From a virus: a DNA stretch of 64,000 bases. The notes beneath the pieces were generated by a model, which did no database searches, was not told the origin of the DNA, and was given only the letters and a program-made list of their open reading frames with translations. Where the stretch lies: the IMG/VR virus record IMGVR_UViG_3300038393_000351, positions 32,001 through 96,000 of that record; one strand, given 5' to 3'. The stretch's first letter is position 1. The number at the start of each line of letters is the position of its first letter. Below, piece after piece: positions 15,464-37,501 of this stretch. Position numbers and translations under genes: made by a program.

Positions 15464-18070
15464 CTAGAGAAGATCAAGGAGAGTTCCACTACCCGCCTCA
15501 GTCTTCCAACCGACGATGTCGGTGATCTTACTGATCGGATCTTGGAACGTCTTAATGAATTGTGTCTCATAGTCAATGTAATCATCCAATCCAAACTCAG
15601 GCGGAAGTACGTCGTTCACCGCGATCACACTCTGATGAATGTGATTTGGTGTCTTTAAGTACGCAAACTTAATCTTACTTCCCTCCTTAATCAGTTCGTA
15701 CTTATTCTCTAATCCCATCTCCTTGATCAGGTGATTGTAGATCAGGGAACCCTTCACTTGAATCGGTGTGCCCGTTCTATATATGGATGCAGCGTCTTCA
15801 AACTTAGCCATATTGTTACAGCCGCGAGGAAAAGCAATATCCGTAAAGGGAAGTGTATGGAACTCTTCACGGAACTTTTCAACGAAGTCCTGCAGTTCCC
15901 CTTCATCTTTATTCATGATGATTGAGTAGATGTTCTTAATCTTGTCTCGAACTACCATCGGTGTCGATGAGCGAACTGCCTGAACACCCTTCATCTTGAG
16001 CTTCGGTTCCTTGTATCGAACACCCTCAGAATCCCAGACATTCAAGATGTACATCTTCTTAGCTGAGAAGACCGCTTTATCGGCGATGATCTCACGTTTC
16101 ATCTTCATCTTCTGGAAAGGAGCGTTGACTATCTTTTGAAGTTCCTCAAACGACTTCTCGATGTAGGGTTCAAACTTACTCTTGCATGAGACGTCAAGGA
16201 AATCAATTACTTTCTCATGCGGCGCGTTCTCAAGACCAACCGCTTTCACTAGAGGTTCGAAGTTGATGTAGATGGAGTCAGTGTCAGCCGCGATGACGTA
16301 GTCGAGGTCGGTAGTCTTGAGCAGCTTATTCATCAGCTCATTGATCTTTCTCTCGATCCACATCGTGGTGATCTGACCAGAAGACGTGACAGACTCAGCC
16401 AGATCAGGATCAAACCAACGGAAGAATTGGTTAGCCAGTGCACCGTAACCAGAGTTCAGGAAGAGCTTCATGGCCATCTGCATATTGTAGCACCTAGCGA
16501 TCTCCTTCTCATCCTCCGGCGATTTGGTCTCTTCGAACCTCCGCTGAGCCTCAAGCATCATCTTCTTATAGACAACGCGTCCATCGTAGAACTTCTTCAT
16601 GATGGTCGGAATAAATCCAACACCGTCCTTCTTAAAGAAGACACCTATTCCAGATGTAGTCACATCCTTCCGTGCAAGCTCATTGTTGTATTCACTACAC
16701 TTGAGCAGGAACATATCGAGATCCATAACCGGAATCCCATTGACGATCTTGGTGCAGTCCCATCCGGATATGACTTTCTCCACCATCTCGGGAGAGATGT
16801 TGTACTGCATGATGATGTGTGGGTACAGTGAGTTCAAGTCAAACGACACGACCCACTTATACATCCCGGGAACCGTGTCCTTAACGTATCCACCCATGAT
16901 CTGACGGTTGATCACGCTTCCCTGCTGGGGAACGACGATCTTTTGTTCTAGAAGGAAGTTGTGGATCAGAACGTCCCAGGGGCGCGTGGTCGTCATCGTA
17001 TCTTGATACGTGATCTTAGCTGAGTACGCCATGGCTAAGACGAGATCGATGAGCTTCAGTTTATCATCGAGCTTATCGATCTTGATCGTATCATCGAGGT
17101 TGTAGTCCATATAGCCTTCATAGTTCTTCTCATAGAAGTTATGAAGTGAACCGTACTCCGAATAGTCCAGCTTTCTCTCACCGAGCTCGACGAAGGCGAT
17201 GTGATCGAGCTTATACGACTCGTGATTTTTGAATGAGAACTTCTTGTACAACTCCATGTAGTCTAGAACTGTGATTCCATAGAGCTCATACACGTGATCG
17301 ATTCGGTTAGCTATATTCGTACCGCCTCGAGCCTGAGACTTACCGCGAACGATGTCTCGATCCTGAACGATTCGCCATGGACTCCACATCTTAATGTAGG
17401 AATCTCCCAGAACGTTCTTGGTGCGGTTCAAGAGATAAGGAATATCAAATCCCTCTACGAACCAACCAGTCAAGATGTCCGGAGTCCACTCGGGATCATT
17501 CCAGCATTCGAGAAGCTTTATGATCAGCTCTCGCTCATTTTCACATAGACAGAACGCAACGCCGGGAAGCTTAGGACGATAGGCTTTAGTGCCAAACATC
17601 AGACGCTTAGTCTGACCATTCTGACGATGCGATAGAGTTACAGCCGTGATCTCCTTGTCGGCGATCTTCGGATCGGGAAATCCAGAATCCGACATCGTCT
17701 CGATGTCGACAGACACGCGCGCTATCTGAGTCGGATCGTACTTGATCTCTCCATAGAACTCATCGTTCAGATACGTATAGAGGAAGTTCGTCAGACCAAA
17801 GAAGGGTTCAGGATCGGGTGCGTTCGAGATCTTAAGCGCTAGACTCTGCTCATACTCTTTGACAAAGTTCTTTGCGTCTTTGATTGAGTCGAAGTGAATC
17901 TTTGATACCGATTCACCATCGAGTGTTCTGAACTCACCTACCGGATCTCTGGCGAAGAGATATGGTTGGTACTCAACGGTTTCTTTAAACGGTTTACCAT
18001 TTGAATATCCACGAACGTAGATGGTGTCACCGCGACAGTGCGCGGACGTATAGAAGTGATTGGTCATCAA
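15464..18070 (-). CDS. 43: B-family DNA polymerase (gp43)
   Basis: DIET exonuclease I; SFDLNSLYP; KLFLNSGYG; ADTDS. Confidence 0.98.
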   Translation of the reverse strand: MMTNHFYTSAHCRGDTIYVRGYSNGKPFKETVEYQPYLFARDPVGEFRTLDGESVSKIHFDSIKDAKNFVKEYEQSLALKISNAPDPEPFFGLTNFLYTYLNDEFYGEIKYDPTQIARVSVDIETMSDSGFPDPKIADKEITAVTLSHRQNGQTKRLMFGTKAYRPKLPGVAFCLCENERELIIKLLECWNDPEWTPDILTGWFVEGFDIPYLLNRTKNVLGDSYIKMWSPWRIVQDRDIVRGKSQARGGTNIANRIDHVYELYGITVLDYMELYKKFSFKNHESYKLDHIAFVELGERKLDYSEYGSLHNFYEKNYEGYMDYNLDDTIKIDKLDDKLKLIDLVLAMAYSAKITYQDTMTTTRPWDVLIHNFLLEQKIVVPQQGSVINRQIMGGYVKDTVPGMYKWVVSFDLNSLYPHIIMQYNISPEMVEKVISGWDCTKIVNGIPVMDLDMFLLKCSEYNNELARKDVTTSGIGVFFKKDGVGFIPTIMKKFYDGRVVYKKMMLEAQRRFEETKSPEDEKEIARCYNMQMAMKLFLNSGYGALANQFFRWFDPDLAESVTSSGQITTMWIERKINELMNKLLKTTDLDYVIAADTDSIYINFEPLVKAVGLENAPHEKVIDFLDVSCKSKFEPYIEKSFEELQKIVNAPFQKMKMKREIIADKAVFSAKKMYILNVWDSEGVRYKEPKLKMKGVQAVRSSTPMVVRDKIKNIYSIIMNKDEGELQDFVEKFREEFHTLPFTDIAFPRGCNNMAKFEDAASIYRTGTPIQVKGSLIYNHLIKEMGLENKYELIKEGSKIKFAYLKTPNHIHQSVIAVNDVLPPEFGLDDYIDYETQFIKTFQDPISKITDIVGWKTEAGSGTLLDLL

Positions 18071-18095
18071 ATCCTAATGATTTTTATGTGAAATC

Positions 18096-18118
18096 GAGAC
18101 CGGAAAAGCCGTAGTCTC
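18096..18118 (-). promoter_or_regulatory. Hairpin in the gene 43 leader (candidate translational operator)
   Basis: GAGAC-TA-CGG-CTTTT-CCG-GTCTC between a TGTGGTACTAT extended -10 and the SD. Confidence 0.45.
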
Positions 18119-18142
18119 TAGAAAGATAGTACCACAGATAAG

Positions 18143-18170
18143 AAAAAAGGAGAACCTTTCGATTCCCCTT
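18143..18170 (-). terminator. Rho-independent terminator
   Basis: AAGGGGAATC-GAAA-GGTTCTCC followed by TTTTTT. Confidence 0.75.
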
Positions 18171-18289
18171 TATCTGCTTAAAATGTTTGCCCAATTAAGC
18201 ATGTACCCGTTTTTTACATCGACGTACCTCTTTGTTGGCGAAACAGTATAGTTTCCATTTTTTTGCCGTGCTTTCCACGGCCCGCACTG
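18143..18289 (-). ncRNA. Candidate late-expressed structured small RNA (~145 nt)
   Basis: TATAAATA at 18297-18290, four hairpins, then a U6 terminator; only a 14-codon ORF without SD. Confidence 0.5.
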
Positions 18290-18329
18290 TATTTATATCC
18301 GGATCAGATGCCGATGTAAATAGCTAAAT

Positions 18330-18563
18330 TCAATTTAAATAACGACCAAACGTTTCCTCAGCTACGCATCCGATGACCATGTCCTCTTCTCGATCATCGG
18401 CAATGATGAATACTGGAGTACATCCGGCTTCCCTCCATTCATCGGCGATCTTCAGGAGTCTCGCGAATGAGTTCCTCCCGCTCAATCCAGAAGTCGCGGC
18501 CATGCTCCTGATGCGTTCCTCTGGAATAACGTCAAAATCATCTAGCGTGCGGGGCATTCTCAA
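18330..18563 (-). CDS. Hypothetical protein
   Basis: ORF overlapping the o-spanin end; AAGGAGG SD. Confidence 0.6.
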   Translation of the reverse strand: MRMPRTLDDFDVIPEERIRSMAATSGLSGRNSFARLLKIADEWREAGCTPVFIIADDREEDMVIGCVAEETFGRYLN

Positions 18564-18840
18564 CCTCCTTTACAGCGCGGTTCGAATAGCGCTTGATTGA
18601 GTTCAGGGAAGCACCGCACGTGGCTCTAGCTTTGTACAAGCGATTGAGATAATCAGCGGTCTGTGAATCCGTCAGAGTCTCAGTGTTCGGCTTCTCGGGA
18701 AGCGGGCATTTATAGAGATTGACGGGAGGAGCTACTACAACCGTTCGCGTTGGAGATTCTTGGTTTGTAGTCTGACAGTTGGCAAGCGGAAGTGCCAAGA
18801 ATACAAGTGCCGCTGCGGTTATAATACGCTTCATCATCAC
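18538..18840 (-). CDS. Outer-membrane lipoprotein spanin (Rz1-like)
   Basis: Signal with LALPLAN-C lipobox, Pro-rich segment, later cysteines; follows the i-spanin. Confidence 0.7.
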   Translation of the reverse strand: MMMKRIITAAALVFLALPLANCQTTNQESPTRTVVVAPPVNLYKCPLPEKPNTETLTDSQTADYLNRLYKARATCGASLNSIKRYSNRAVKEVENAPHAR

Positions 18841-19226
18841 TTAGCTCCTAGTTTCTCAATGGTCTTCTTAAGAATAAGCGAAGAGGGTCGATCGTGCTTT
18901 AGAACATCCGGCGACTGCAGCCATTCGTTGATCGAGTGTTCCTGATCGCTGAGAACTGATATATCATCATCGAGCTCCTTAGAAGCCGCTTGCTGAAGCT
19001 TCATGAGTGCTTTCTGGTGAGCGATAGTCTCATCCTGCTCTTCTATAACGCGCTGCTTGGCAGCTACTTCAGCAGTGAGTCGAGCGTTCTCAGCTGCGGT
19101 GTGTGTGACGGACCAATACATCCAGCCGACTGTGCCTACAATCGCTACAGCACCGATTCCAATAAGCCAATATTTAATAGCAGAACTAGCGAAAAACGCC
19201 GTTATTCGAGCTAACAATCCAGACAT
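18837..19226 (-). CDS. Inner-membrane spanin (Rz-like)
   Basis: N-terminal TM then long coiled coil; late promoter TAAATA at 19260-19255. Confidence 0.7.
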   Translation of the reverse strand: MSGLLARITAFFASSAIKYWLIGIGAVAIVGTVGWMYWSVTHTAAENARLTAEVAAKQRVIEEQDETIAHQKALMKLQQAASKELDDDISVLSDQEHSINEWLQSPDVLKHDRPSSLILKKTIEKLGAK

Positions 19227-19260
19227 CGTTTATGTGACTCCTCCATGTACTTTGTATTTA

Positions 19261-19623
19261 TCACCCAAAGTACTCCCGTTTCTTATGAATAGCGTATTCC
19301 GTGGCTTTCTCGATAGCTTGTTCATAGTTGTCGTAGGCGCGATCGAGTTCATCATCAGTGAAAGTTCTGAAATAACTTCCCTCTTCCCACGCATCCGCTG
19401 GATCTCTCTTCGTCTCACAGCGATAGCAGGCTGAGACTTCACCGCGACTGTTCACTGAAGCTTCAATACCGACTATACGTCTTATCTTGACTTCCGGAGA
19501 GAAATAACTTTCCTGTCTCTCCCAGACTTTACCGTCGATTTCTTTTTGAACTACACGCACTCGTTCATATGAGCGCGGGCAGTAGAAGACGTCGTCGATT
19601 CCATACTTACACTCAAAATTCAT
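19261..19623 (-). CDS. Hypothetical protein
   Basis: ORF with GAGGA SD, coupled to neighbours. Confidence 0.6.
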   Translation of the reverse strand: MNFECKYGIDDVFYCPRSYERVRVVQKEIDGKVWERQESYFSPEVKIRRIVGIEASVNSRGEVSACYRCETKRDPADAWEEGSYFRTFTDDELDRAYDNYEQAIEKATEYAIHKKREYFG

Positions 19624-19808
19624 TTCGATTCCTCGATCATCGGAGTTCCAATCAGGATTTCTTTACCCGATAGACGAACTTTGAGTTCACGAACGAACGA
19701 CATCGCGCCGCTGAACGTCTTGAACTTCTTCGATCGCTCATCTATGAGTTTGAAGTTTGGATCACTCTCGTCAACGTTCTTGATTGTAAATTTTACTCTG
19801 TGCTTCAA
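19620..19808 (-). CDS. Hypothetical protein
   Basis: GGAGG SD before TTG. Confidence 0.55.
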   Translation of the reverse strand: MKHRVKFTIKNVDESDPNFKLIDERSKKFKTFSGAMSFVRELKVRLSGKEILIGTPMIEESK

Positions 19809-19874
19809 GTGACCGCCTCCTACATCCTTAGTCTGACTCAGATATTAAACTATACATCGTATATGAGAATTCTT

Positions 19875-20858
19875 TTAATCTCCAATTACTTGTTGACGAT
19901 AGAGTTCCACGATCAGTTCCTCGATCTTACTCACGTCCGCTCTCTCAGGGAGCGAAGATTGAGTGCTCGCTTCTTCAACATCCGTTAATAATTTATCAAG
20001 TTCATCGGCTATCGCTTTATACGGAACTTCACCGCGCTTGATACTCAAGAGACGATCGGCGTTTGGTCTGGGAAATGTGATTTGATTCGTGCTGAGAAGC
20101 TCGATCGCCTGCTCACCTACGCGGATGGCGTGCGACAGGGCTTTCCAGTCGATTCCCTGATTCGTCTCAGCTTGCTTTGCTCGATCACCGTATTCATTGT
20201 AGACTCGTCGGTAGATTTTACAAGCGTTCTCGATCGTGATGGTGTAGGGTACTTTCCTATCGCAGCAGACGAAGTGAAGCATGTGTGTGCCGTGTGCACC
20301 GTTTGGAATGCTCTCGATCGAGCAGTGCTCTACGCTATCGGCTAAATTCTGGAGCACACCGTAGAGTTCTCCAAGCTTTTCCTTTGGAGAGATATTCTCA
20401 TAGTATTCAAGAACTTCAAGCACTTCCCTGACAGCCGCGACACGGGAACCACGGATTCCATACTTATTCGCCTGCTGTCTGCAGTATCCTACATAACCAT
20501 CAACTTTCCTCGATAGGAAGATGTTCTTGTTATCTAGAATGATGTCGTAGAGAGGGTCCTTGAAGATGATGTTCTGAGGAGGAGCGTAGATCATCTCCAT
20601 CCCAATGATGTCGCCGGAGAACAACATCTCACAGAGCTTATGGACTGAGAAGCTCTGGATGTCTACATCGTCCGCGGTGTTCTTTGCACCGTGCTCCTTG
20701 GGTTTTGAGTTGTCGTACGCTTTCTTGGCACGCTGCAGAACGATGTCTCGACCCGAGGGAAGGTGAACTTCCTTCAGATCGAGATCAGACGTTTCAGTGT
20801 TCGTTCCGTAGAGGTGCGAGCCGTGCTTAATCTTAAAGATAGTCTTCTTGTCACGCAT
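19875..20858 (-). CDS. Pol-beta-superfamily nucleotidyltransferase (RlaP/phage type)
   Basis: HGSHLYGTNTETSDLDLK (GS...DxD); YCRQQANKYG; DWKALSHAIR. Confidence 0.85.
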   Translation of the reverse strand: MRDKKTIFKIKHGSHLYGTNTETSDLDLKEVHLPSGRDIVLQRAKKAYDNSKPKEHGAKNTADDVDIQSFSVHKLCEMLFSGDIIGMEMIYAPPQNIIFKDPLYDIILDNKNIFLSRKVDGYVGYCRQQANKYGIRGSRVAAVREVLEVLEYYENISPKEKLGELYGVLQNLADSVEHCSIESIPNGAHGTHMLHFVCCDRKVPYTITIENACKIYRRVYNEYGDRAKQAETNQGIDWKALSHAIRVGEQAIELLSTNQITFPRPNADRLLSIKRGEVPYKAIADELDKLLTDVEEASTQSSLPERADVSKIEELIVELYRQQVIGD

Positions 20859-21576
20859 TGTTCTGAAGTAGATCCCGTAGTGTAAGCTTATTCGAGACTT
20901 CTACAACAAGCCCATGATGATTGATGAAGTGAGTGGGCTTGTTGTCGACGTCGTTGAAGACAGCACCAGTCAGGACACCACCGAACACACAAGCGGTGTC
21001 GAGATTGAGACGATTGTGATGAAGATCCGGCCAATCGCTCCTTAGCGGTGTGTGACCGTGAACGACGAATCCACCGTTTGGACGCATATCCATCATGAAC
21101 TCATCGCGAGCCCAGACCATGTAGTCCTTGTTCTGGGTATCCATCGAGAGACGAAGGCTCCGTTGGATGCCGGCGTGGACAAACGTCCTGAGTCCATCGT
21201 TGAAGAAGTACGGAAGATTCATCATCTCCTCGATGTAGGAACGAGGGATGTCGTAGATCTCCTGAACTCCGAACGAGTCCATCGTATCACCATACGACGC
21301 CGTCCACTGGTACTGAGAGTGAGTATCACCGAAGTACGCTTCCCAGAGCATCTTCTCATGGTTACCCATCAGGCGAATGGTCTCTCCCTTCTCCTTCATA
21401 CGACGAGAGAAGTCGAGCACTCCCTTTGAGTCCGGACCGCGGTCGATGTAGTCGCCGATGAAGACGTAGCGAGTCTCCTCACCCGGAAAGTTCTTTTCAT
21501 AGGCTGCTATGAGCGCCTTGAGTTGATCAAGGCACCCATGAACGTCGCCGATTGCAAGTGTTTTCATTTTACTCAC
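20851..21576 (-). CDS. Metallophosphoesterase, Ser/Thr protein phosphatase (lambda NinI/PphA-like)
   Basis: GDVHG, GDYIDRGPDS, GNHE, VHAG, GHTP, LDTA. Confidence 0.92.
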   Translation of the reverse strand: MSKMKTLAIGDVHGCLDQLKALIAAYEKNFPGEETRYVFIGDYIDRGPDSKGVLDFSRRMKEKGETIRLMGNHEKMLWEAYFGDTHSQYQWTASYGDTMDSFGVQEIYDIPRSYIEEMMNLPYFFNDGLRTFVHAGIQRSLRLSMDTQNKDYMVWARDEFMMDMRPNGGFVVHGHTPLRSDWPDLHHNRLNLDTACVFGGVLTGAVFNDVDNKPTHFINHHGLVVEVSNKLTLRDLLQNNA

Positions 21577-21724
21577 TCAAGATCGCCACGATGTCCTTGG
21601 AGATCGAATCGAATACTGCGTTAGCTTCTTCCTGCGACAGATTCTTGTCGTCGATTAAGCCGTGCTTTGCAAGAGCTGTTACAACGCTAACAACGATTAA
21701 AACTGCGATCACTTCGGTGTTCAT
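21569..21724 (-). CDS. Small protein with hydrophobic N-terminus
   Basis: ATGA-coupled; AAGGA SD. Confidence 0.5.
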   Translation of the reverse strand: MNTEVIAVLIVVSVVTALAKHGLIDDKNLSQEEANAVFDSISKDIVAILSE

Positions 21725-22740
21725 GATGCTAATTCCTTGTTTCCTTGATAAAGACGAACTCGACCTTCCGCTTCTGCTTTGATGAAGCGGGCTACGTAGT
21801 CGTCGTTGTACATAGCCAGAACTTGGTAGTAGTGTTCCCAGGCATACTCCCTCCACCATCCGGAGGTGATCGAAGTGCATACCTTCTCCAGAGCGATCAG
21901 GAACGAAGTCCTCGGTGCGATCTCGAAGTTGCACGGAATCTGGCTGCGCTCCAGAGCGAGAACGTAGGACTCTTCGAGAACTGAGAGGAGCTTGACGTGA
22001 ATCGGAAGTTCAAAGAACTTCTTCTTATCGGTTTTAACTTCTGCGCCGTCGGCTTGAAAATACTTGTACGCCGGAGAAGTTTTTTGCATATCTTCGTCCA
22101 TGCAAAACGGCCAATCCGGATCTGGAAGCGTGGCTAAAGCCGCGTGTATGTCGTCGTGCTCATACTTGTACTCGACTCCATCACCTGAGAAGAACTGCTC
22201 CTTGTTCCGTTCAAGAGACGGGTGCTTATAATAGTACGTTGCCTTCTCACGTCTCTTGAACCAGTCCTGAAGCACTGGGGGTACGCTGTAACCAAGTCCC
22301 CTCAGAGCCAGGATGTCGTCCATCGTCTTCCTGAAGTGTGGATTGTTCTTCAGATAGCGGTGAGACAACTTCAGTGCTAGAACAACGTTCGGATCAGCAA
22401 AGTGAACGACGCCGAACAGATCATCTAGAAACTTTTTGTTAAACTCTGTAAATAGCGCTCGGTCTGTTCTTTTCAGTTCCCATCCAGTTGGATTCTCGAT
22501 CGGATCGGCAACCTCAAACTCGATCGGCCTGGCACCTCTCACGTGAAGATGAATGATGATCTTTAGCAACCGAGAATCATCGGTGTGAAACTCGATTTTC
22601 TTTTCCCTAAGGCGATCTTGAAAACCATTGATTTCATCCATCGTAGCGATGGCGTCTACATCCGAGGGAATCCTCCCCAGGCGAACGCCGTGAGCGATGA
22701 GTGCATGAGAACCGATGATGAGCATGTCAGCAACCCGCAT
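21721..22740 (-). CDS. Phage protein with N-terminal nucleotidyltransferase-like motif (start may be 22725)
   Basis: LIIGSHAL...PSDVDAI (GS + DxD); LKLSHRY; YEHDDIH; EESYVLALER; KVCTSITSGWWRE. Confidence 0.7.
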   Translation of the reverse strand: MRVADMLIIGSHALIAHGVRLGRIPSDVDAIATMDEINGFQDRLREKKIEFHTDDSRLLKIIIHLHVRGARPIEFEVADPIENPTGWELKRTDRALFTEFNKKFLDDLFGVVHFADPNVVLALKLSHRYLKNNPHFRKTMDDILALRGLGYSVPPVLQDWFKRREKATYYYKHPSLERNKEQFFSGDGVEYKYEHDDIHAALATLPDPDWPFCMDEDMQKTSPAYKYFQADGAEVKTDKKKFFELPIHVKLLSVLEESYVLALERSQIPCNFEIAPRTSFLIALEKVCTSITSGWWREYAWEHYYQVLAMYNDDYVARFIKAEAEGRVRLYQGNKELAS

Positions 22741-23020
22741 CCGATGATAGCCAACCTTCTAAGGCACCATGCCCTTCGAGAGGCCAATAGTCGTTCCGTA
22801 CATCAGAACTATACCATGGTGTTCCATCCGATTGAACCGGAAAATAATACCCAGAGTTTCCAAATTCATCAAAGGGAGGAAGTCCAGTAAACGAAACGAT
22901 GATGCCGTGTTCATCGGCGATCTTTTCGATCTCCCAGATCTTCCTCTTAACGTAGTCGCGAAGCTCAACTCGGATTCCCTCGATCTTCGCCTGAGCTTCA
23001 GCTTTCGGATCATTAGTCAT
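22727..23020 (-). CDS. W-x-S-S...C family small protein, paralog 5
   Basis: KIADEHG...GYYFP...GWLSSDAGC-stop. Confidence 0.75.
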   Translation of the reverse strand: MTNDPKAEAQAKIEGIRVELRDYVKRKIWEIEKIADEHGIIVSFTGLPPFDEFGNSGYYFPVQSDGTPWYSSDVRNDYWPLEGHGALEGWLSSDAGC

Positions 23021-23201
23021 CTTGATACTTCTCCAGGATCAAGGTGAATTTCTCACCATTGATTTCGAAATTGCGATAGCTAACGTGTTCACCGTGTTTT
23101 GAAGCTTGAAAGAATCGCCTATCTTCATATCGATCCATGACGTCTTCTATCCCATTATCGATAGAAGACGTTAGTTCATCTAGAATACTCACGCTCAACA
23201 C
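23013..23201 (-). CDS. Hypothetical protein inserted in the paralog array
   Basis: Overlaps both neighbours by a few nt. Confidence 0.5.
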   Translation of the reverse strand: MLSVSILDELTSSIDNGIEDVMDRYEDRRFFQASKHGEHVSYRNFEINGEKFTLILEKYQDD

Positions 23202-23524
23202 CTTTCGGACGAACTGATCCAGTTACCGTGACTCCAGTCACGTTCGTATTCTCCGCAGTTGTTCCATGGATGATATTCATGGTGTTCCGGATGATTTTTG
23301 TTTGGATCTTCTTCGTAACCTTCCGGAAGATCATATGCATAATCATCCCAGACTACCCAATCATCTGGACGCTTCGGGTAATAAGTTCCAGAATGCTGGT
23401 TGTCTGGGCTGGAGTAGACAAAAGGCACTATATGATCGTCGGCGATCTTTTGTGCTTCTTTCCATTTTTCTTTGATCGAATCGATGATATCATCGATTCG
23501 ATTGCGCGCTTGTTGTTGATTCAT
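23195..23524 (-). CDS. W-x-S-S...C family small protein, paralog 4
   Basis: KIADDH...GTYYP...NWISSSERC-stop; ATG 23524. Confidence 0.75.
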   Translation of the reverse strand: MNQQQARNRIDDIIDSIKEKWKEAQKIADDHIVPFVYSSPDNQHSGTYYPKRPDDWVVWDDYAYDLPEGYEEDPNKNHPEHHEYHPWNNCGEYERDWSHGNWISSSERC

Positions 23525-23526
23525 CT

Positions 23527-23775
23527 TCAGCAATAGATCGAAGATGAAGACCAGGACGAAGGATACCACTCACCTTCACCTGAAGCACCACCGTCTGCGT
23601 ACGGATGATTTTCCGAACCGGCCGGGTAGTAAGTACCGATGTTGCGAGGCTCGAAATCGAACTCTTCACCAGTCTCATCGGCGATCCTCTGAGCCGCGTC
23701 GATCAGTTCCTGAATCTGACCACGAATCTCAGCGAACTTCTTTCGCGCGTATTCCTTCTTACTCATACCGTCCAT
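23527..23775 (-). CDS. W-x-S-S...C family small protein, paralog 3
   Basis: RIADET...GTYYP...WYPSSWSSSSIYC-stop; GGAGG SD. Confidence 0.75.
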   Translation of the reverse strand: MDGMSKKEYARKKFAEIRGQIQELIDAAQRIADETGEEFDFEPRNIGTYYPAGSENHPYADGGASGEGEWYPSSWSSSSIYC

Positions 23776-23786
23776 TTCTTCCTCCA

Positions 23787-24047
23787 TCAGCAAGTCGACG
23801 CTTGCCAGTCAATGTGTTCATGAGACCAATGAGCGTCTGCCCATTCATCTGACGCTTCCCATTCGCACCCGCCCGACGCTTGCCAGATCAGCTCACGAGG
23901 GTGATACGTGCCCAGCGTACTCGGCTTGAAATCAAACGAGATTTCATGCTCGTCGGCGATCTCAGTCGCCTTATCGAGAAGATCGTTGACTTCAGCCAGG
24001 ATCTTCTTGATATCTTTCTTCGCTTTTTCCTTCTTACTCAGCGTCAT
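23787..24047 (-). CDS. W-x-S-S...C family small protein, paralog 2
   Basis: EIADEH...GTYHP...WQASGGC EWEASD...WQASTC-stop; AAGGAG SD. Confidence 0.75.
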   Translation of the reverse strand: MTLSKKEKAKKDIKKILAEVNDLLDKATEIADEHEISFDFKPSTLGTYHPRELIWQASGGCEWEASDEWADAHWSHEHIDWQASTC

Positions 24048-24058
24048 TCAGTTCTCCT

Positions 24059-24316
24059 TTAACAGTTCTGCGACGATGAACGCCAGAAACCACCATCGTC
24101 TCCATACTCATTCGATGGAAACAAGTAATCGTCGGGATCACCTTCCCACTCGCTTTTTCTTGCAGGATCGGGATAATACGATCCGCCCATGCCATACGCA
24201 ACACTGAAGAAGAACTCGATACCGTGAGCATCGGCGATCTCAGTAGCTTCCTTGATGAGGAGCTTTGCTTGATTCTTCAGTTCCTGAATCTTTCCTCTCG
24301 CTTCGTTCTTATCCAT
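24059..24316 (-). CDS. W-x-S-S...C family small protein, paralog 1
   Basis: EIADAHG...AYGMGGSYYP...FWRSSSQNC-stop; GAGGA SD. Confidence 0.75.
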   Translation of the reverse strand: MDKNEARGKIQELKNQAKLLIKEATEIADAHGIEFFFSVAYGMGGSYYPDPARKSEWEGDPDDYLFPSNEYGDDGGFWRSSSQNC

Positions 24317-24345
24317 CCGTTCCTCTTCCATATAAAGACAGTGGG

Positions 24346-24376
24346 ATTATACGTCCTAAATACTCATTCGTGAACT
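24346..24376 (-). promoter_or_regulatory. Sigma70-like early/middle promoter for the paralog operon
   Basis: GTTCAC...ACG-TATAAT upstream of 24316. Confidence 0.55.
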
Positions 24377-24467
24377 TATCGTTGAAAGTCTTTTTGAACC
24401 GTAAAATAGTTAACACTCATCCCTGTACAATGCCGATGATAAGGTATATGTATGATCTAGAAGGAGA

Positions 24468-24734
24468 ATGATCATGAGTATCTGGTCAGACATGCTTAGA
24501 GGAGCTTTTTATGGACTCTTTGGGAGCGGTTCATACATAGACTCCGATCATCCGAACCTCGATCCAGTCAAGATCGAGATCATGGAACCCAACACTCTTC
24601 AGTGGGCTCCGGTTGGAACATCGGTACCAAACATCAACGCCGTGAGCGTCAGGCTTCGAGAAGAAGTTAGAAAAGTTCCCGGCAGGCGAGCTCGGGCTGT
24701 TGATTCTTCCGGCCGAGTAATCGACATCGCGTAA
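24468..24734 (+). CDS. Hypothetical protein (plus-strand island)
   Basis: AAGGAG SD; TGTACA...TATATGTATGAT promoter-like sequence upstream. Confidence 0.65.
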   Translation: MIMSIWSDMLRGAFYGLFGSGSYIDSDHPNLDPVKIEIMEPNTLQWAPVGTSVPNINAVSVRLREEVRKVPGRRARAVDSSGRVIDIA

Positions 24735-24752
24735 AAATAAAAGTTTCTAGAT

Positions 24753-24791
24753 CAACTGCACTGTGGTTATAATCTGGCCACAGTGCAGTTG
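24753..24791. repeat. 14-bp perfect inverted repeat enclosing TATAAT
   Basis: CAACTGCACTGTGG-TTATAATCTGG-CCACAGTGCAGTTG. Confidence 0.85.
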
Positions 24792-24821
24792 CTGTATCTA
24801 TAACAAGGAGAACACTATACG

Positions 24822-25019
24822 ATGACGACCAATAAGACTACCAAGCTTCTGAATGAGTTCTTGAAGGGCAAGGTCCTGACCGTTGCTCAGATCCGTTCGA
24901 AGTTCGGCGTTCGCAATGTTTCGGCACACATCTCGTACATCCGCCAGAAGCACGATCGCCGCATCGTCACTTCCCGCAAGGGAAACAAGACCTACTACGG
25001 GTTTCAAGCTGTAGCCTAA
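24822..25019 (+). CDS. Small basic winged-helix DNA-binding protein
   Basis: KLLNEFLKGKVLTVAQIRSKFGVRNVSAHISYIR...KTYYG; AAGGAG SD. Confidence 0.7.
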   Translation: MTTNKTTKLLNEFLKGKVLTVAQIRSKFGVRNVSAHISYIRQKHDRRIVTSRKGNKTYYGFQAVA

Positions 25020-25043
25020 TCACTTAAATATCAAGTGGTTCGT

Positions 25044-25069
25044 AGGGCCGGCGCATAGCCGGCCTTTTT
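25044..25069 (+). terminator. Rho-independent terminator
   Basis: GGCCGGC-GCATA-GCCGGCC followed by TTTTT. Confidence 0.75.
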
Positions 25070-25082
25070 CGTATGAGGAGGG

Positions 25083-25268
25083 ATGATGGCAAAGAAGAAA
25101 GAAAAACAATGGAAGCTTCATGCGATGACCAAAGAGGGTTGCGCTACTCTCTTCAAGTTCTATAAAGACAGATACAACGTCAGACTGATTAAAGATCGTG
25201 AACTGGATACCAACGGAGTCACGTGGACGTTTACGATCACACATCCGTTTCCAGATGAGGTGGACTGA
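25083..25268 (+). CDS. Hypothetical protein
   Basis: GAGGAGG SD; TGATG coupling to the next gene. Confidence 0.65.
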   Translation: MMAKKKEKQWKLHAMTKEGCATLFKFYKDRYNVRLIKDRELDTNGVTWTFTITHPFPDEVD

Positions 25269-25699
25269 TGAAGATAGGATTCACTGGAAACCAACACGGA
25301 ATGAGCAAGGCTCAGAGAGTAGCGTTCGCTGAGACGATCATATCCTGGGATTCAAAGCAGTTCCCAACTGAGTTTCATCATGGAGACTGCATAGGTTCGG
25401 ATGAACAAGCACACTTCATCGTGAAAGAAGTGTGTCCTCACTGGAAGATCGTAATCCATCCTCCCATCAATCATACGAAGAGGGCGTTTGTTCTGGGCGA
25501 TGAGTCTCGGATCTTACGGGATTATCTACCGAGAAATCGAGACATAGTCAGCGAAGCTCTGAGGATGATAGCTACACCGGCTCAGTATCTGGAGCAACTC
25601 AGATCTGGTACGTGGTACACTATTCGGTATTCGAGAAAAAGAGGCAGAATGATCCGAATCATCTTTCCGGATGGATCGTTTCGAGACGAAAACGTATAA
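25268..25699 (+). CDS. SLOG-superfamily (YspA/DprA-like) nucleotide-binding protein
   Basis: KIGFTG; HHGDCIGSD; RNRDIV; SGTWYTIRY. Confidence 0.65.
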   Translation: MKIGFTGNQHGMSKAQRVAFAETIISWDSKQFPTEFHHGDCIGSDEQAHFIVKEVCPHWKIVIHPPINHTKRAFVLGDESRILRDYLPRNRDIVSEALRMIATPAQYLEQLRSGTWYTIRYSRKRGRMIRIIFPDGSFRDENV

Positions 25700-25721
25700 A
25701 CCCGGGAAATTTCCCGGGTTT
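25698..25721. terminator. Bidirectional terminator between convergent operons
   Basis: Perfect palindrome AAACCCGGGAAATTTCCCGGGTTT flanked by A/T runs. Confidence 0.8.
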
Positions 25722-25725
25722 TATT

Positions 25726-25827
25726 TTAACTTCCTAATATGTAGGGAATGATGATTCGAAGAAGTCCGGTATTATTAGCAATCACCATCAGTCCAATGAA
25801 GATGAGTACAGCAGTTACCCAGCGCAT
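25726..25827 (-). CDS. 33-aa membrane micro-protein
   Basis: MRWVTAVLIFIGLMVIANNTGLLRIIIPYILGS; TGATG-coupled to regA. Confidence 0.5.
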   Translation of the reverse strand: MRWVTAVLIFIGLMVIANNTGLLRIIIPYILGS

Positions 25828-26234
25828 CACTTCTTCTTTCCGATAGCGTACTTTGGAGACAGTGTCCATTCCTTCTTCTCGTCGAAGTGGATTACTTTAA
25901 TCTTCTCCCGAAGGGGTCCTTCAATCTTTTCCGAGATAGCGTTCTTAGGTGTCCTGATCTTGACCAGATCCCATTGCTCAAGTAGGTCCGCGATCGTGTT
26001 TCGACGTGCTCGATCCTCATCATCGAATCCAGCATCCATGCCATCGAGCAGCCTCATCTCCTTGTAGTGAGTGATGAAGTATCGACCGCGCTTCTGTAGG
26101 ATGTGGCAGGACTGATAGAGCGTCTTATCTTTTGAAATACCAATTCGAGTGAGCGTTTCCTTGACTTTCAGGAACTGCGGGCGATCTAGCGGCTCAATCT
26201 CAATAAACGTATCAATCAACTTCTGCATAACCAA
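25827..26234 (-). CDS. regA: RegA translational repressor
   Basis: FLKVKETLTRIGI...LYQSCHILQKRGRYFITHYKE...RRNTIADLLEQWDL. Confidence 0.95.
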   Translation of the reverse strand: MVMQKLIDTFIEIEPLDRPQFLKVKETLTRIGISKDKTLYQSCHILQKRGRYFITHYKEMRLLDGMDAGFDDEDRARRNTIADLLEQWDLVKIRTPKNAISEKIEGPLREKIKVIHFDEKKEWTLSPKYAIGKKK

Positions 26235-26275
26235 AGCCTTCTTATTTTATATTGGCTTTGTATTTAGGCTTTTAC

Positions 26276-26662
26276 TTAGTTCTCGACACCTCGACTTCTG
26301 GACTCCCGCATCTCCTCGATCTGCTCGGGAGTGAGGATAGACGCCGCTTGCTCAGCTTTTACTCTGGAAAATGAGTAGGCTTCCATCAGGAACTTAACGT
26401 CCTCAGATGAGTTCCTCTTTCCCCACTTAGCAAACCTCTTCTTAGGACGAATGGCTTCTCGATAGTAGTCGTACTGAAGCTTTGGATCAAGATACTGATA
26501 GAGGTTGATCTCAGCTGCATGAAGAATCGTATCGGGATAGTAGGAGAGGGAGCGGTTGACCATAAACGCTGGATACTCCTTCTCTCCGTACTCAGCCATA
26601 GGATCACCCTTCTTCTGAGTGATCGCGTCGACCCATGTAAACGGTGATACCTTCTCAGCCAT
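26276..26662 (-). CDS. 62: Clamp loader small subunit (gp62)
   Basis: YPAFMVNRSLSYYPDT...LQYDYY...KKRFAKW; synteny. Confidence 0.93.
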   Translation of the reverse strand: MAEKVSPFTWVDAITQKKGDPMAEYGEKEYPAFMVNRSLSYYPDTILHAAEINLYQYLDPKLQYDYYREAIRPKKRFAKWGKRNSSEDVKFLMEAYSFSRVKAEQAASILTPEQIEEMRESRSRGVEN

Positions 26663-26665
26663 CTG

Positions 26666-27610
26666 TTACTTCCACATCCCCGATCCCTCGATCATGATCT
26701 CAGCCAGACAAGCCGAGAGGTTGATCTCCGGATCTACACTGAAAGCAGCCTGGTACTGATACTTCGCCAGAGTCACAACCAGAGCGGGAATGAATCTCGG
26801 ATCGAGCTGCTCAGATGCGGCGTCGTAGAACTTACGAAACACCGCTTGCTGTGAAGTATCGGAGTTCTCCGCAACCCACTTCCGTACGTTGGAATACTCC
26901 TTCTTCTTCATATAGCCAATGAGTTCATCTAGTGAAACTGACTCAAGGTTGACGAGAATTCCCGAATCGATCTTTCCGGTCGCTGAGTATCGCTGAAGTT
27001 CGTTGAGAATACGTCTCCAGTCGGGAAACCACTTCTGGATCACCGCAGCGAGAGCTTTCTTATCGTACTCGACACTCTCTTGTTCAAGGATCACTTCCAC
27101 TCGCTTCATGAACTGAACAGCGAGCTTGGCCATATCACTCTTCTTGATCTTGAAATCGATGATGGAACACCGACTCTGCAGAGCTTCAATGATCTTATTC
27201 GGATAGTTCGCCGTTAGGATGAAGCCGCAGTTGTTCGAGAACTCCTCCATAAAGTTGCGAAGAGCCGGCTGAGTGCTGTTGGGATTCAGGTGATCGGCTT
27301 CGTCTAGGATCACGTACTTTCGTCCCTCGGAGAACGAGATAGACGACGCAAACTGAGTTATCTCATTTCGAAGAGTGTCGATGTTTCGATCGAGCGATCC
27401 ATTCACGACGATGTAGTCGGAGCCAATCTCCTTAAGCATCGCTTTAGCGACAGTAGTCTTACCAACGCCGGCGTTCCCAGTCAAGAGGAGGTTCTGTACG
27501 TTCTTCTGGTCTACGTACGTTTGGAACACTTTCTTAAGATCTTCCGGCAGAATAACATCGGCGATCTTATTCGGTCTAAACTTCTCAGTCCAAAGATATT
27601 CGTCAGACAT
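26666..27610 (-). CDS. 44: Clamp loader large subunit (gp44)
   Basis: WTEKFRP; GNAGVGKTT; ILDEAD; LQSRC. Confidence 0.97.
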   Translation of the reverse strand: MSDEYLWTEKFRPNKIADVILPEDLKKVFQTYVDQKNVQNLLLTGNAGVGKTTVAKAMLKEIGSDYIVVNGSLDRNIDTLRNEITQFASSISFSEGRKYVILDEADHLNPNSTQPALRNFMEEFSNNCGFILTANYPNKIIEALQSRCSIIDFKIKKSDMAKLAVQFMKRVEVILEQESVEYDKKALAAVIQKWFPDWRRILNELQRYSATGKIDSGILVNLESVSLDELIGYMKKKEYSNVRKWVAENSDTSQQAVFRKFYDAASEQLDPRFIPALVVTLAKYQYQAAFSVDPEINLSACLAEIMIEGSGMWK

Positions 27611-31968: not shown

Positions 31969-32442
31969 CTATGGCAGTAGAATTTTCTTAGTAAGAAGGA
32001 TAGCTTCCTCCATATCGTGAACTGTGAACGGACAAGCCTCACGCATCATAGCATGATCGTGAACGTTAGGTGAATCCTTCTCGGTCAGATAGACGATGGG
32101 AATGTTCCATGCATCGGCCCAGGCTACTTCCATCACAGTACCAATGGAGACTCGGCCAGCACCGATCATATTCACGAAAACGAGATCGGATGTCTTGACG
32201 TCATTGCGGTCGCGATGAAAGATGCCGCGCTGTGTCGACATGACGGAGAGTGTGTCTGGATAGACATCCAGGATCTCCTTCTCATTGGAGAGATACTCCT
32301 TTGAGCGAAGGGGAGAGTACGCAACGATCCTACCATTGGAGATGTCGTCCAACTGCTTACTTACATACTCACGCCAGTTGGTGCATCCACCCCAGGAGCA
32401 ACCGGTAATCGGACCTGCGGTATATACTTTATATGAATTCAT
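31969..32442 (-). CDS. Nucleoside 2-deoxyribosyltransferase / NMP N-glycosidase family protein
   Basis: VYTAGPI; RDRNDVKTSDLVFVN; SIGTVMEVAWA; TATAAATA at 32469-32462. Confidence 0.75.
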   Translation of the reverse strand: MNSYKVYTAGPITGCSWGGCTNWREYVSKQLDDISNGRIVAYSPLRSKEYLSNEKEILDVYPDTLSVMSTQRGIFHRDRNDVKTSDLVFVNMIGAGRVSIGTVMEVAWADAWNIPIVYLTEKDSPNVHDHAMMREACPFTVHDMEEAILLTKKILLP

Positions 32443-37426: not shown

Positions 37427-37501
37427 TGGCGCACCTAGACGGAATCGAACCGCCGACACAAGGGTTGAAAGCCTCCGTTCTACCATCTGAACTATAGGTG
37501 C
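37427..37501 (-). tRNA. tRNA-Glu(UUC) with irregular anticodon stem and encoded CCA
   Basis: GCACCTA/TAGGTGC acceptor; GTTC/GAAC D stem; GGCGG-TTCGATT-CCGTC T arm; loop CTTTCAA; G-CCA. Confidence 0.8.

Follow-up and report, generated by a model that had tools for sequence, protein, structure and literature searches.

AbiE is called the fourth most abundant phage-defence system in PMC11375011, and its effectors are the nearest relatives of a 339-amino-acid (aa) nucleotidyltransferase encoded in a 64,000-nucleotide (nt) stretch of viral DNA, positions 32,001 to 96,000 of IMG/VR record IMGVR_UViG_3300038393_000351 (the whole stretch is called the window below). For MenT1, the same source gives T39 as the phosphoacceptor, D41-x-D43 as the metal-binding motif and K137 as the residue that binds the nucleotide, and its partner MenA1 is described there as working via an N-terminal helix. 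Fifteen of 21 menA1 homologs sit upstream of a menT-like gene, according to PMC10435456. In the window, the enzyme gene follows five genes for small proteins that end in a Trp-Ser...Cys tail. Enzyme and small proteins belong to a phage-only module of two parts, namely one nucleotidyltransferase of the MenT/AbiEii fold and one to six small acidic proteins encoded just upstream, and they form a strongly conserved gene pair across very different phages. The small proteins may be clients that the enzyme modifies at the serines of their tails, a reading to which we give a probability of about 40%.

The pairing was followed from both partners. On the side of the small proteins, a scan of IMG/VR for the core YGMGG-x-Y-x-[PG] yielded 55 confirmed loci, 53 of them informative, and a same-strand homolog of the enzyme is present in 52 (52/55, or 52/53 of the informative loci). 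The enzyme lies downstream in 51 of these, as an open frame starting within ~1.4 kb, and just upstream in one (L065). Two of the misses (L040, L057) are contigs that end within ~350 nt of the small gene. The only informative miss on this side (L033) is a stray small-protein copy in a 305-kb phage (G001, 138670-138921), with the enzyme 30 kb away; in this phage a second, weak small-protein match adjoins the enzyme.

On the enzyme side, the best 80 of 190 confirmed loci were used, 78 of them informative and two (L096, L097) cut at the contig end. A profile match to the small family was found in 69/80, and tailed small proteins are present in 73-74 of the 78 informative loci. The nearest match is upstream in 65 loci, at a median distance of 318 nt and never more than 1244 nt away. 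The co-occurrence that the initial annotation had proposed to look for with a profile is present in both directions. Besides the two truncated loci, the 11 loci without a profile match include a duplicate (L127 of L125), and eight of the 11 were inspected. Diverged open reading frames (ORFs) ending in W-x-[SP]-S-x-x-C or W-x-x-S-S-C were found upstream of the enzyme in L090 (three), L092 (five), L128 and L143, and L074 is borderline for a tailed partner. The five tandem ORFs of L092 (3390-5002) end in FW[IV]PSSM[SE]C and are missed by the profile, as they do not have the YGMGG core; this 11-kb locus also holds 7 tRNA genes.

In a survey of neighbours, same-strand ORFs up to 3.5 kb from 104 non-identical enzymes were clustered. 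The small family is found near the enzyme in 96/104 unique loci (229 ORFs), a figure that is biased upward. Since the 104-locus set pools loci found via either partner, the 69/80 obtained by profile on the enzyme side is the fairer figure. The next most frequent neighbour, in 14/104 loci, is an out-of-frame artefact inside the enzyme gene. Because no other neighbour recurs, the conserved unit consists of the small protein or proteins and the enzyme.

The pair occurs in 700 or more sequenced phages, including T4 relatives, phAPEC8-like coliphages, plant-pathogen phages and jumbo phages. It was seen in an Otagovirus, in Tevenvirinae, in a Phapecoctavirus and a Tegunavirus, and also in a jumbo Erwinia phage, an Aeromonas phage, Myxococcus phage Mx1 and an Acinetobacter Twarogvirinae phage. 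In the whole records of p000v, CHI14 and Mx1, small genes are present only beside the enzyme. Of the candidates scored, 2153 proteins belong to the enzyme family at E<=1e-5, and tblastn gave 701 phage records. Four loci were found in 185,579 species genomes, all of them on metagenome-assembled contigs, so that the family is nearly absent there. Neither partner has an assigned function, and no description of either family or of their pairing was found in open-access full texts (supplements aside).

The five small proteins of the window, 86-109 aa long as listed and all with Cys as the last residue, are real paralogs, as the initial annotation had proposed. A profile of 71 family members (A4), which contains only paralog 1 among the five, recovers the five paralogs and nothing else from the 117-kb record (E 3.6e-28 to 2.3e-9). 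With PHROG 899, four of them match at E 2e-20 to 3e-9, and the match of the fifth is weak (0.022). The helix, the G-x-Y-x-P motif and the Trp-Ser...Cys end that had been named as common features correspond to invariant columns of the five-paralog alignment, which are M1, A11, I32-A33-D34 (the IAD of the helix), G50, Y52 and P54 (G-x-Y-x-P), G77, W83 and C90. The linker had been called hypervariable, which overstates its variation, as separate orthologs exist in related contigs for each paralog. These orthologs are closer to it than its fellow paralogs are, which argues for an old array rather than a rapidly diversifying one.

An exhaustive profile search gave at least 990 cluster representatives of the small family at E<=1e-3, of which 294 remain at E<=1e-10. 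The proteins are 70-140 aa long, and the median pI of the best representatives is 4.5. The family is not in Pfam: no meaningful match was obtained for any of the 71 A4 members, and none above threshold for the five window paralogs. Cys is the terminal residue in 146 of the 150 best-scoring representatives. Of these 146 proteins, 142 have W at position -8, 143 have S, A or P at -6 and 145 have S at -5; position -4 is S in 141 and Thr in a single one. Copies of W-x-[SAP]-S are also present inside the linker, with 54 copies in 51/146 proteins versus 2.9 +/- 1.7 (maximum 11) in 1000 shuffles, so that the tail motif is ~18 times commoner there than by chance. Judged from these sequences, the tail behaves as a linear, repeatable motif.

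The AlphaFold2 (AF2) model of the small protein shows a confident N-terminal helix (residues 8-36) and, at moderate confidence, a two-stranded sheet that pairs the G-x-Y-Y strand (50-53) with the W-x-S-S strand (82-85). A fold search with this model gave no match at E<=0.001, and searches of the ESM Atlas with the small protein or with enzyme residues 172-339 led to nothing usable. Fused or longer forms of the small protein were absent among 8000 scored candidates, which is weak evidence. The small family has no match in T4 at E<=0.1 (the enzyme was not searched for in T4). The idea that T4 Cef belongs to the family was dropped, as T4 has no such match and cef was not found in the stretches examined.

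The 339-aa enzyme possesses the G-S...D-x-D motifs of Pol-beta nucleotidyltransferases, in agreement with the initial annotation. In an alignment of 104 homologs used for residue conservation, G10 is kept in 103/104, S11 in 102/104, and D27 and D29 in 104/104. Also invariant in 104/104 are K124, H127, K138, R164, H195, D196 and H199, as well as E256, E257, E264, R265, K286, S293, G294 and R297. From this conservation, the enzyme is almost certainly catalytically active. Its Pfam and PHROG families (DUF7277, DUF7275, PHROG 2141) are all without assigned function.

An AF2 model of the enzyme from an alignment of 42 homologs reached a predicted local distance difference test (pLDDT) of 90.3 and a predicted template modelling score (pTM) of 0.87. 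Its closest structure is MenT1 (Z 11.0, root-mean-square deviation 3.9, 162 residues aligned, model range 1-304), followed by MenT3/TglT (Z 9.9), JHP933 (Z 9.2), ANT(2'') (Z 9.1), MenT4 (Z 8.9) and the AbiEi C-terminal domain (Z 7.9). Foldseek returned 8an5_A (E 2.2e-4). The nearest folds also include LnuA; MenT1, MenT3, JHP933, ANT(2'') and LnuA transfer nucleoside monophosphates to hydroxyl groups. As the margin over other minimal transferases is small (1-2 Z), 'MenT-like' refers here to the fold rather than to membership of the family. Sequence searches gave no match to Pfam PF08843 (DUF1814) at E<=1, no PDB chain at E<=10 with the 42-homolog profile, and no relation to any chain of the MenAT1 entries.

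K124 is located 97 residues after D27, versus 96 residues between D41 and K137 of MenT1, a correspondence by spacing only. Position 25, two before D-x-D, is Pro in at least 90% of the 42 homologs; Sundance and phage G have Lys there, and avDM10 has Asn. Because the equivalent of T39 is a near-invariant Pro, auto-phosphorylation induced in the manner of MenA is impossible at that site. The all-helical C-terminal part of the enzyme, a domain barely covered by the fold search, possesses a second conserved polar cluster, where H127, H195-D196 and H199 are invariant. Its H...HD...H...EE pattern presumably recalls metal-dependent hydrolases; the Pfam HD family (PF01966) does not match the enzyme at E<=1.

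Brevibacillus phage Sundance and Bacillus phage G encode full-length homologs of the enzyme with all listed invariants except K286, which is Arg in both. Directly upstream, both phages encode a small acidic protein with an N-terminal helix and no Cys. The tail YSSSYY is present twice in Sundance gp088 (L012 4675-4956), and TSSSW is terminal in phage G gp204 (L156 2113-2466). These two proteins are homologous to each other (E 2e-10) and may, by analogy, be the Gram-positive form of the partner. If they are true counterparts, the shared core would be a helix, an acidic linker and an aromatic-flanked Ser triplet, and the Cys would be a feature of one lineage. A 'cysteine switch' acting on the His cluster of the enzyme is not general, as both phages keep the cluster with partners that have no Cys.

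The homologs of Streptomyces and Gordonia phages have a shortened N-terminal G-S...D-x-D domain. A stand-alone DUF7275 in actinophages was ruled out by the presence of this short domain in the sequences, and the idea that the partner tracks the transferase domain was dropped with it. In Curvibacter phage P26059A (L159, ~1690-2070), the unannotated gap immediately upstream of the enzyme gene contains a tRNA-Arg(tct) gene and a tRNA gene with CTA anticodon, and a tailed partner was not found in it.

In the window, the genes run in the order promoter site, four paralogs, 62-aa ORF, paralog 5, enzyme, 51-aa ORF, phosphatase and RlaP-family gene (Table 1). The operon of this distant T4-like phage is flanked by RegA and clamp-loader genes on one side and DNA polymerase on the other. 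The genes are as described in the initial annotation, which had missed the 62-aa ORF within the array and a second possible start of paralog 1. The tight coupling noted downstream of the array was found again in this phage, with overlapping stops and starts at nearly every junction. The overlap is 14 nt between paralog 5 and the enzyme start, ATGA between the enzyme stop and the 51-aa ORF start, and 8 nt both between the 51-aa ORF and the phosphatase start and between the phosphatase and the RlaP gene. The single promoter proposed earlier has a matching site. This site is only suggestive and weak evidence, since the promoter scan found 6 sites versus 5.5 expected from shuffles.

Table 1. Features of the operon, with positions in the window
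Feature	Position	Strand	Length, tail or motif	Matches and remarks
Sigma-70-like promoter	24346..24374	-	TTCACG-17-TATAAT	10/12 consensus matches; upstream of paralog 1
Paralog 1	24059..24331	-	90 aa as listed; FWRSSSQNC	PHROG 899 E 2.1e-20; A4 E 3.6e-28
Paralog 2	23787..24047	-	86 aa; WQASTC	PHROG 899 E 3.1e-10; A4 E 2.0e-13
Paralog 3	23527..23793	-	88 aa as listed, start ambiguous; WSSSSIYC	PHROG 899 E 1.1e-11; A4 E 1.4e-11
Paralog 4	23195..23524	-	109 aa from Met at 23524; WISSSERC	PHROG 899 E 2.9e-9; A4 E 1.8e-10
62-aa ORF	23013..23201	-	62 aa	Unrelated to paralogs; overlaps paralog 4 end and paralog 5 start
Paralog 5	22727..23020	-	97 aa; WLSSDAGC	A4 E 2.3e-9; PHROG 899 only 0.022
Nucleotidyltransferase	21721..22740	-	339 aa; IIGS...SDVD	DUF7277 1.7e-10; DUF7275 1.6e-61; PHROG 2141
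51-aa ORF	21569..21724	-	51 aa; hydrophobic N-terminus	Fills apparent enzyme-phosphatase gap
Calcineurin-like metallophosphoesterase	20851..21576	-	241 aa	Metallophos 2.2e-17; PHROG 246 'NinI-like' 1.6e-44
RlaP-family nucleotidyltransferase	19875..20858	-	327 aa	PF10127 1.9e-10; PHROG 388 2.2e-82

The start of paralog 1 is more likely the second ATG, at 24316. This start is preceded by GAGGA and would give 85 aa, the length of the closest homolog (P0005). The first ATG is too near the predicted -10 element to leave room for a ribosome-binding site. Paralog 2 holds internal WQAS and WSHE copies. The open frame of paralog 4 extends over 23195-23569, and its linker is long and acidic/aromatic. 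Neither Pfam nor PHROG assigns the 62-aa ORF to a family, and its sole homolog is in the near relative L005/L006; similarly, the 51-aa ORF is conserved only in this near relative (L005, L006 and L070 are one contig). A scan of 17000-27000 with Rfam gave no match, and PADLOC has no family for the four operon proteins tested. A plus-strand block (24468-25699) between the operon and regA diverges from the operon promoter region and encodes, among others, a 143-aa protein that weakly matches a PHROG named 'GTP-binding domain'. The sole tRNA gene of the window, tRNA-Glu(ttc), is found at 37427-37501 (-), 13 kb from the operon. Among sequencing runs, one from soil DNA contains 0.93 of the sampled words, and no RNA run containing them was listed.

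The NinI-like phosphatase and the RlaP-like enzyme named in the initial annotation were both recognised. The phosphatase scores 64.6 bits in Pfam against a cut-off of 21.5 and resembles Pnkp, PrpE and lambda-type phosphatases. In NCBIfam, where all its matches are below their cut-offs, the phosphatase domain of bacterial Pnkp comes first (1.5e-21). The RlaP gene scores 41.3 bits against a cut-off of 23, with only positions 19-146 of the 249 profile positions covered. According to PMC12776372, RlaP extends damaged RNA 3' ends by 1-2 nucleotides. On the flanks of the enzyme in the 104 loci, relatives of the phosphatase are present in 8, RlaP in 2, polynucleotide kinase in 7 and RNA ligase in 4. 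Outside the window, phosphatase and RlaP genes directly downstream of the enzyme were found only in the near-identical relative L005/L006. The two genes are local neighbours and not part of the conserved module, and the earlier idea that they belong to the same system is not supported. The proposed role of the phosphatase as eraser of a protein mark is not supported either, as the best matches of the two genes point to RNA 3'-end healing, although the substrate of the phosphatase could be a protein or an RNA end. From their sequences, phosphatase and RlaP look like a separate RNA 3'-end healing pair that shares the operon in this lineage. The ten neighbouring ORFs that were scanned include no recognised RNA ligase or kinase.

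In the client reading, the helix and the YGMGG-x-Y-x-P core would form a common docking body, and the aromatic-Ser-Ser-Ser tail would be presented to the active site. There, a serine hydroxyl of the tail would be nucleotidylylated or phosphorylated. The bond so formed may also be a target of the H127 / H195-D196 / H199 / E256-E257 cluster in the C-terminal domain. An enzyme and its clients fit better than an enzyme and its inhibitor because of the pairing, the number of partners, the strictly kept serines and the repetition of the serine motif. Modification at the tail serines is favoured because hydroxyls are the acceptors of nucleotides in this fold family, and in MenT of phosphate as well. 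A wider version of this idea, which we regard as quite unlikely, is a phage-wide system of protein O-nucleotidylylation or protein-primed oligonucleotide synthesis, whose conjugates would mimic nucleic acid or tRNA ends and blunt host immunity. The repeated aromatic-Ser-Ser-Ser motifs of the acidic clients would receive nucleotides from the enzyme, the His/Asp/Glu domain would remove them, and the number of paralogs would reflect the range of host targets.

Several points weigh against the client reading. According to PMC10435456 and PMC11375011, proteins are not among the substrates of any characterised relative of the fold; these enzymes act on small molecules or on the 3' ends of tRNAs. The AF2 model pairs tail strand 82-85 with 50-53 (pLDDT only 53-68 there), so that the tail may be part of the structure instead of an acceptor left free. 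The strict Cys at the last residue has no role in the client model, and Cys288 of the enzyme does not co-vary with it. A thiol relay or disulfide between Cys288 and the terminal Cys was rejected, as eight loci have Ala or Ser at position 288 and their partners, where present, still end in Cys. The required terminal Cys is explained by none of the readings considered here. The Gram-positive partners are analogues from two phages only, with no significant profile similarity to the main family (hhalign probability 0.4%). No recognisable partner is present beside the enzyme in L075, L125/L127 and L148, and none was seen for the homologs of Streptomyces and Gordonia phages or Curvibacter phage P26059A. 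A complex prediction for the enzyme and paralog 1, both given as alignments, scored 0.00, which speaks neither for nor against binding.

The main rival to the client reading, which we consider somewhat unlikely, is antitoxin-like gating, where the small proteins would bind and gate a MenT-like nucleotidyltransferase acting on the tRNA 3' ends of host or phage, as the 68-aa MenA1 gates MenT1. MenT1, MenT3 and MenT4 are among the closest folds, the order of small protein and enzyme is that of menA1-menT1, the confident helix 8-36 recalls the helix through which MenA1 works, and K124 has nearly the spacing of MenT1 K137. However, the MenT phosphoacceptor position is Pro, and neither DUF1814 nor the MenAT1 chains are related in sequence. 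The one to six partners per enzyme and the much stricter conservation of tail than of helix set the small proteins apart from known antitoxins, and the family is essentially absent from bacterial genomes. The enzyme could also heal tRNA 3' ends in RNA-end repair or counter-defence, with the small proteins as specificity subunits or toxin decoys; in this phage, phosphatase and RlaP would complete a 3'-end repair operon. We hold this to be unlikely. It is consistent with the Pnkp-like phosphatase and RlaP-family enzyme added in the window, with the kinase, ligase and phosphatase genes near some enzymes, and with Erwinia phage Hallingskeid, where the small partner directly follows the kinase. Genes for tRNAs are found up to 5 kb from the enzyme in 19/104 loci (a raw count, without background rate), and two lie directly upstream of the Curvibacter phage enzyme. 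Nonetheless, neighbours of the repair type are a minority of loci, counted without a background rate, the only tRNA gene of the window is 13 kb off, and the Ser/Cys tail is left without a role.

The remaining two explanations carry less weight. Two early genes could be kept together by shared regulation or ancestry without direct interplay, in keeping with the fact that no complex, fusion or covariation was found. This is highly unlikely, given that the pairing persists in Straboviridae, Otagovirus, Phapecoctavirus, Mx1 and jumbo phages whose neighbours otherwise differ. In a manner comparable to lanthionine and aminovinyl-cysteine chemistry, the Ser...Cys tail could be processed with the enzyme as maturase, for instance into a thioether ring through activation and elimination of Ser and then addition of Cys, or with release of a small product. 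The small proteins would then be precursors of ribosomally synthesised and post-translationally modified peptides (RiPPs). Several precursor-like paralogs per enzyme, repeated core-like motifs and a Cys that is strictly last, three to four positions after Ser, would suit this idea, which had also been raised in the initial annotation. Nevertheless, it is hardly credible: Pfam and PHROG searches of nine operon ORFs identified no known RiPP enzyme, recognition element, protease or exporter, no third gene is conserved across the 104 loci, the proteins have 70-140 aa with a predicted folded core, and the Gram-positive analogues have no Cys.

A phage-borne version of an AbiE-related enzyme with partners of its own could reveal a new protein modification, or a viral way to manipulate or repair tRNA ends.

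Compared with known systems, RlaP/Pnkp repair systems resemble the downstream genes only, where the RlaP threshold is passed and the phosphatase is Pnkp-like. Unlike in those systems, no ligase or kinase was identified in the ten ORFs, and neither gene travels with the module elsewhere. RiPP arrays have in common with the module several small paralogs beside one enzyme and repeated core-like motifs. They differ in that the phage family conserves core and tail rather than a leader, and is not accompanied by a maturase, protease or exporter of known family. GlnD and bacterial CCA-adding enzymes combine a nucleotidyltransferase with a C-terminal metal-dependent hydrolase domain. Similarly, the N-terminal transferase of the phage enzyme precedes an all-helical domain in which a His/His-Asp/His/Glu cluster is invariant, although this domain has no Pfam HD match at E<=1.

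With MenAT1 and the MenT/AbiEii enzymes, the phage enzyme shares the fold, the G-[ST] and D-x-D motifs and, by spacing only, a conserved Lys ~96-97 residues on, and as in MenAT1 a short helical protein is encoded just upstream. The phage enzyme differs in its size of 300-340 aa, in the extra invariant cluster H127, H195-D196, H199, E256-E257 and E264-R265, in the Pro at the phosphoacceptor position, and in lacking any PF08843 or PDB sequence match. Its partners are of another family, occur in phages only and in 1-6 copies, and have the near-invariant end W-x-S-S-S-x-x-C. In the HEPN-MNT system (type VII), a minimal nucleotidyltransferase (MNT) oligo-AMPylates a tyrosine of its partner protein. 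This offers a possible precedent for the client reading, by analogy, as in both cases a small Pol-beta-fold enzyme would act on a hydroxyl of its neighbour's product. In the phage module, however, the partner is not a HEPN RNase, the candidate acceptors are tail serines, and several partners are present per enzyme.

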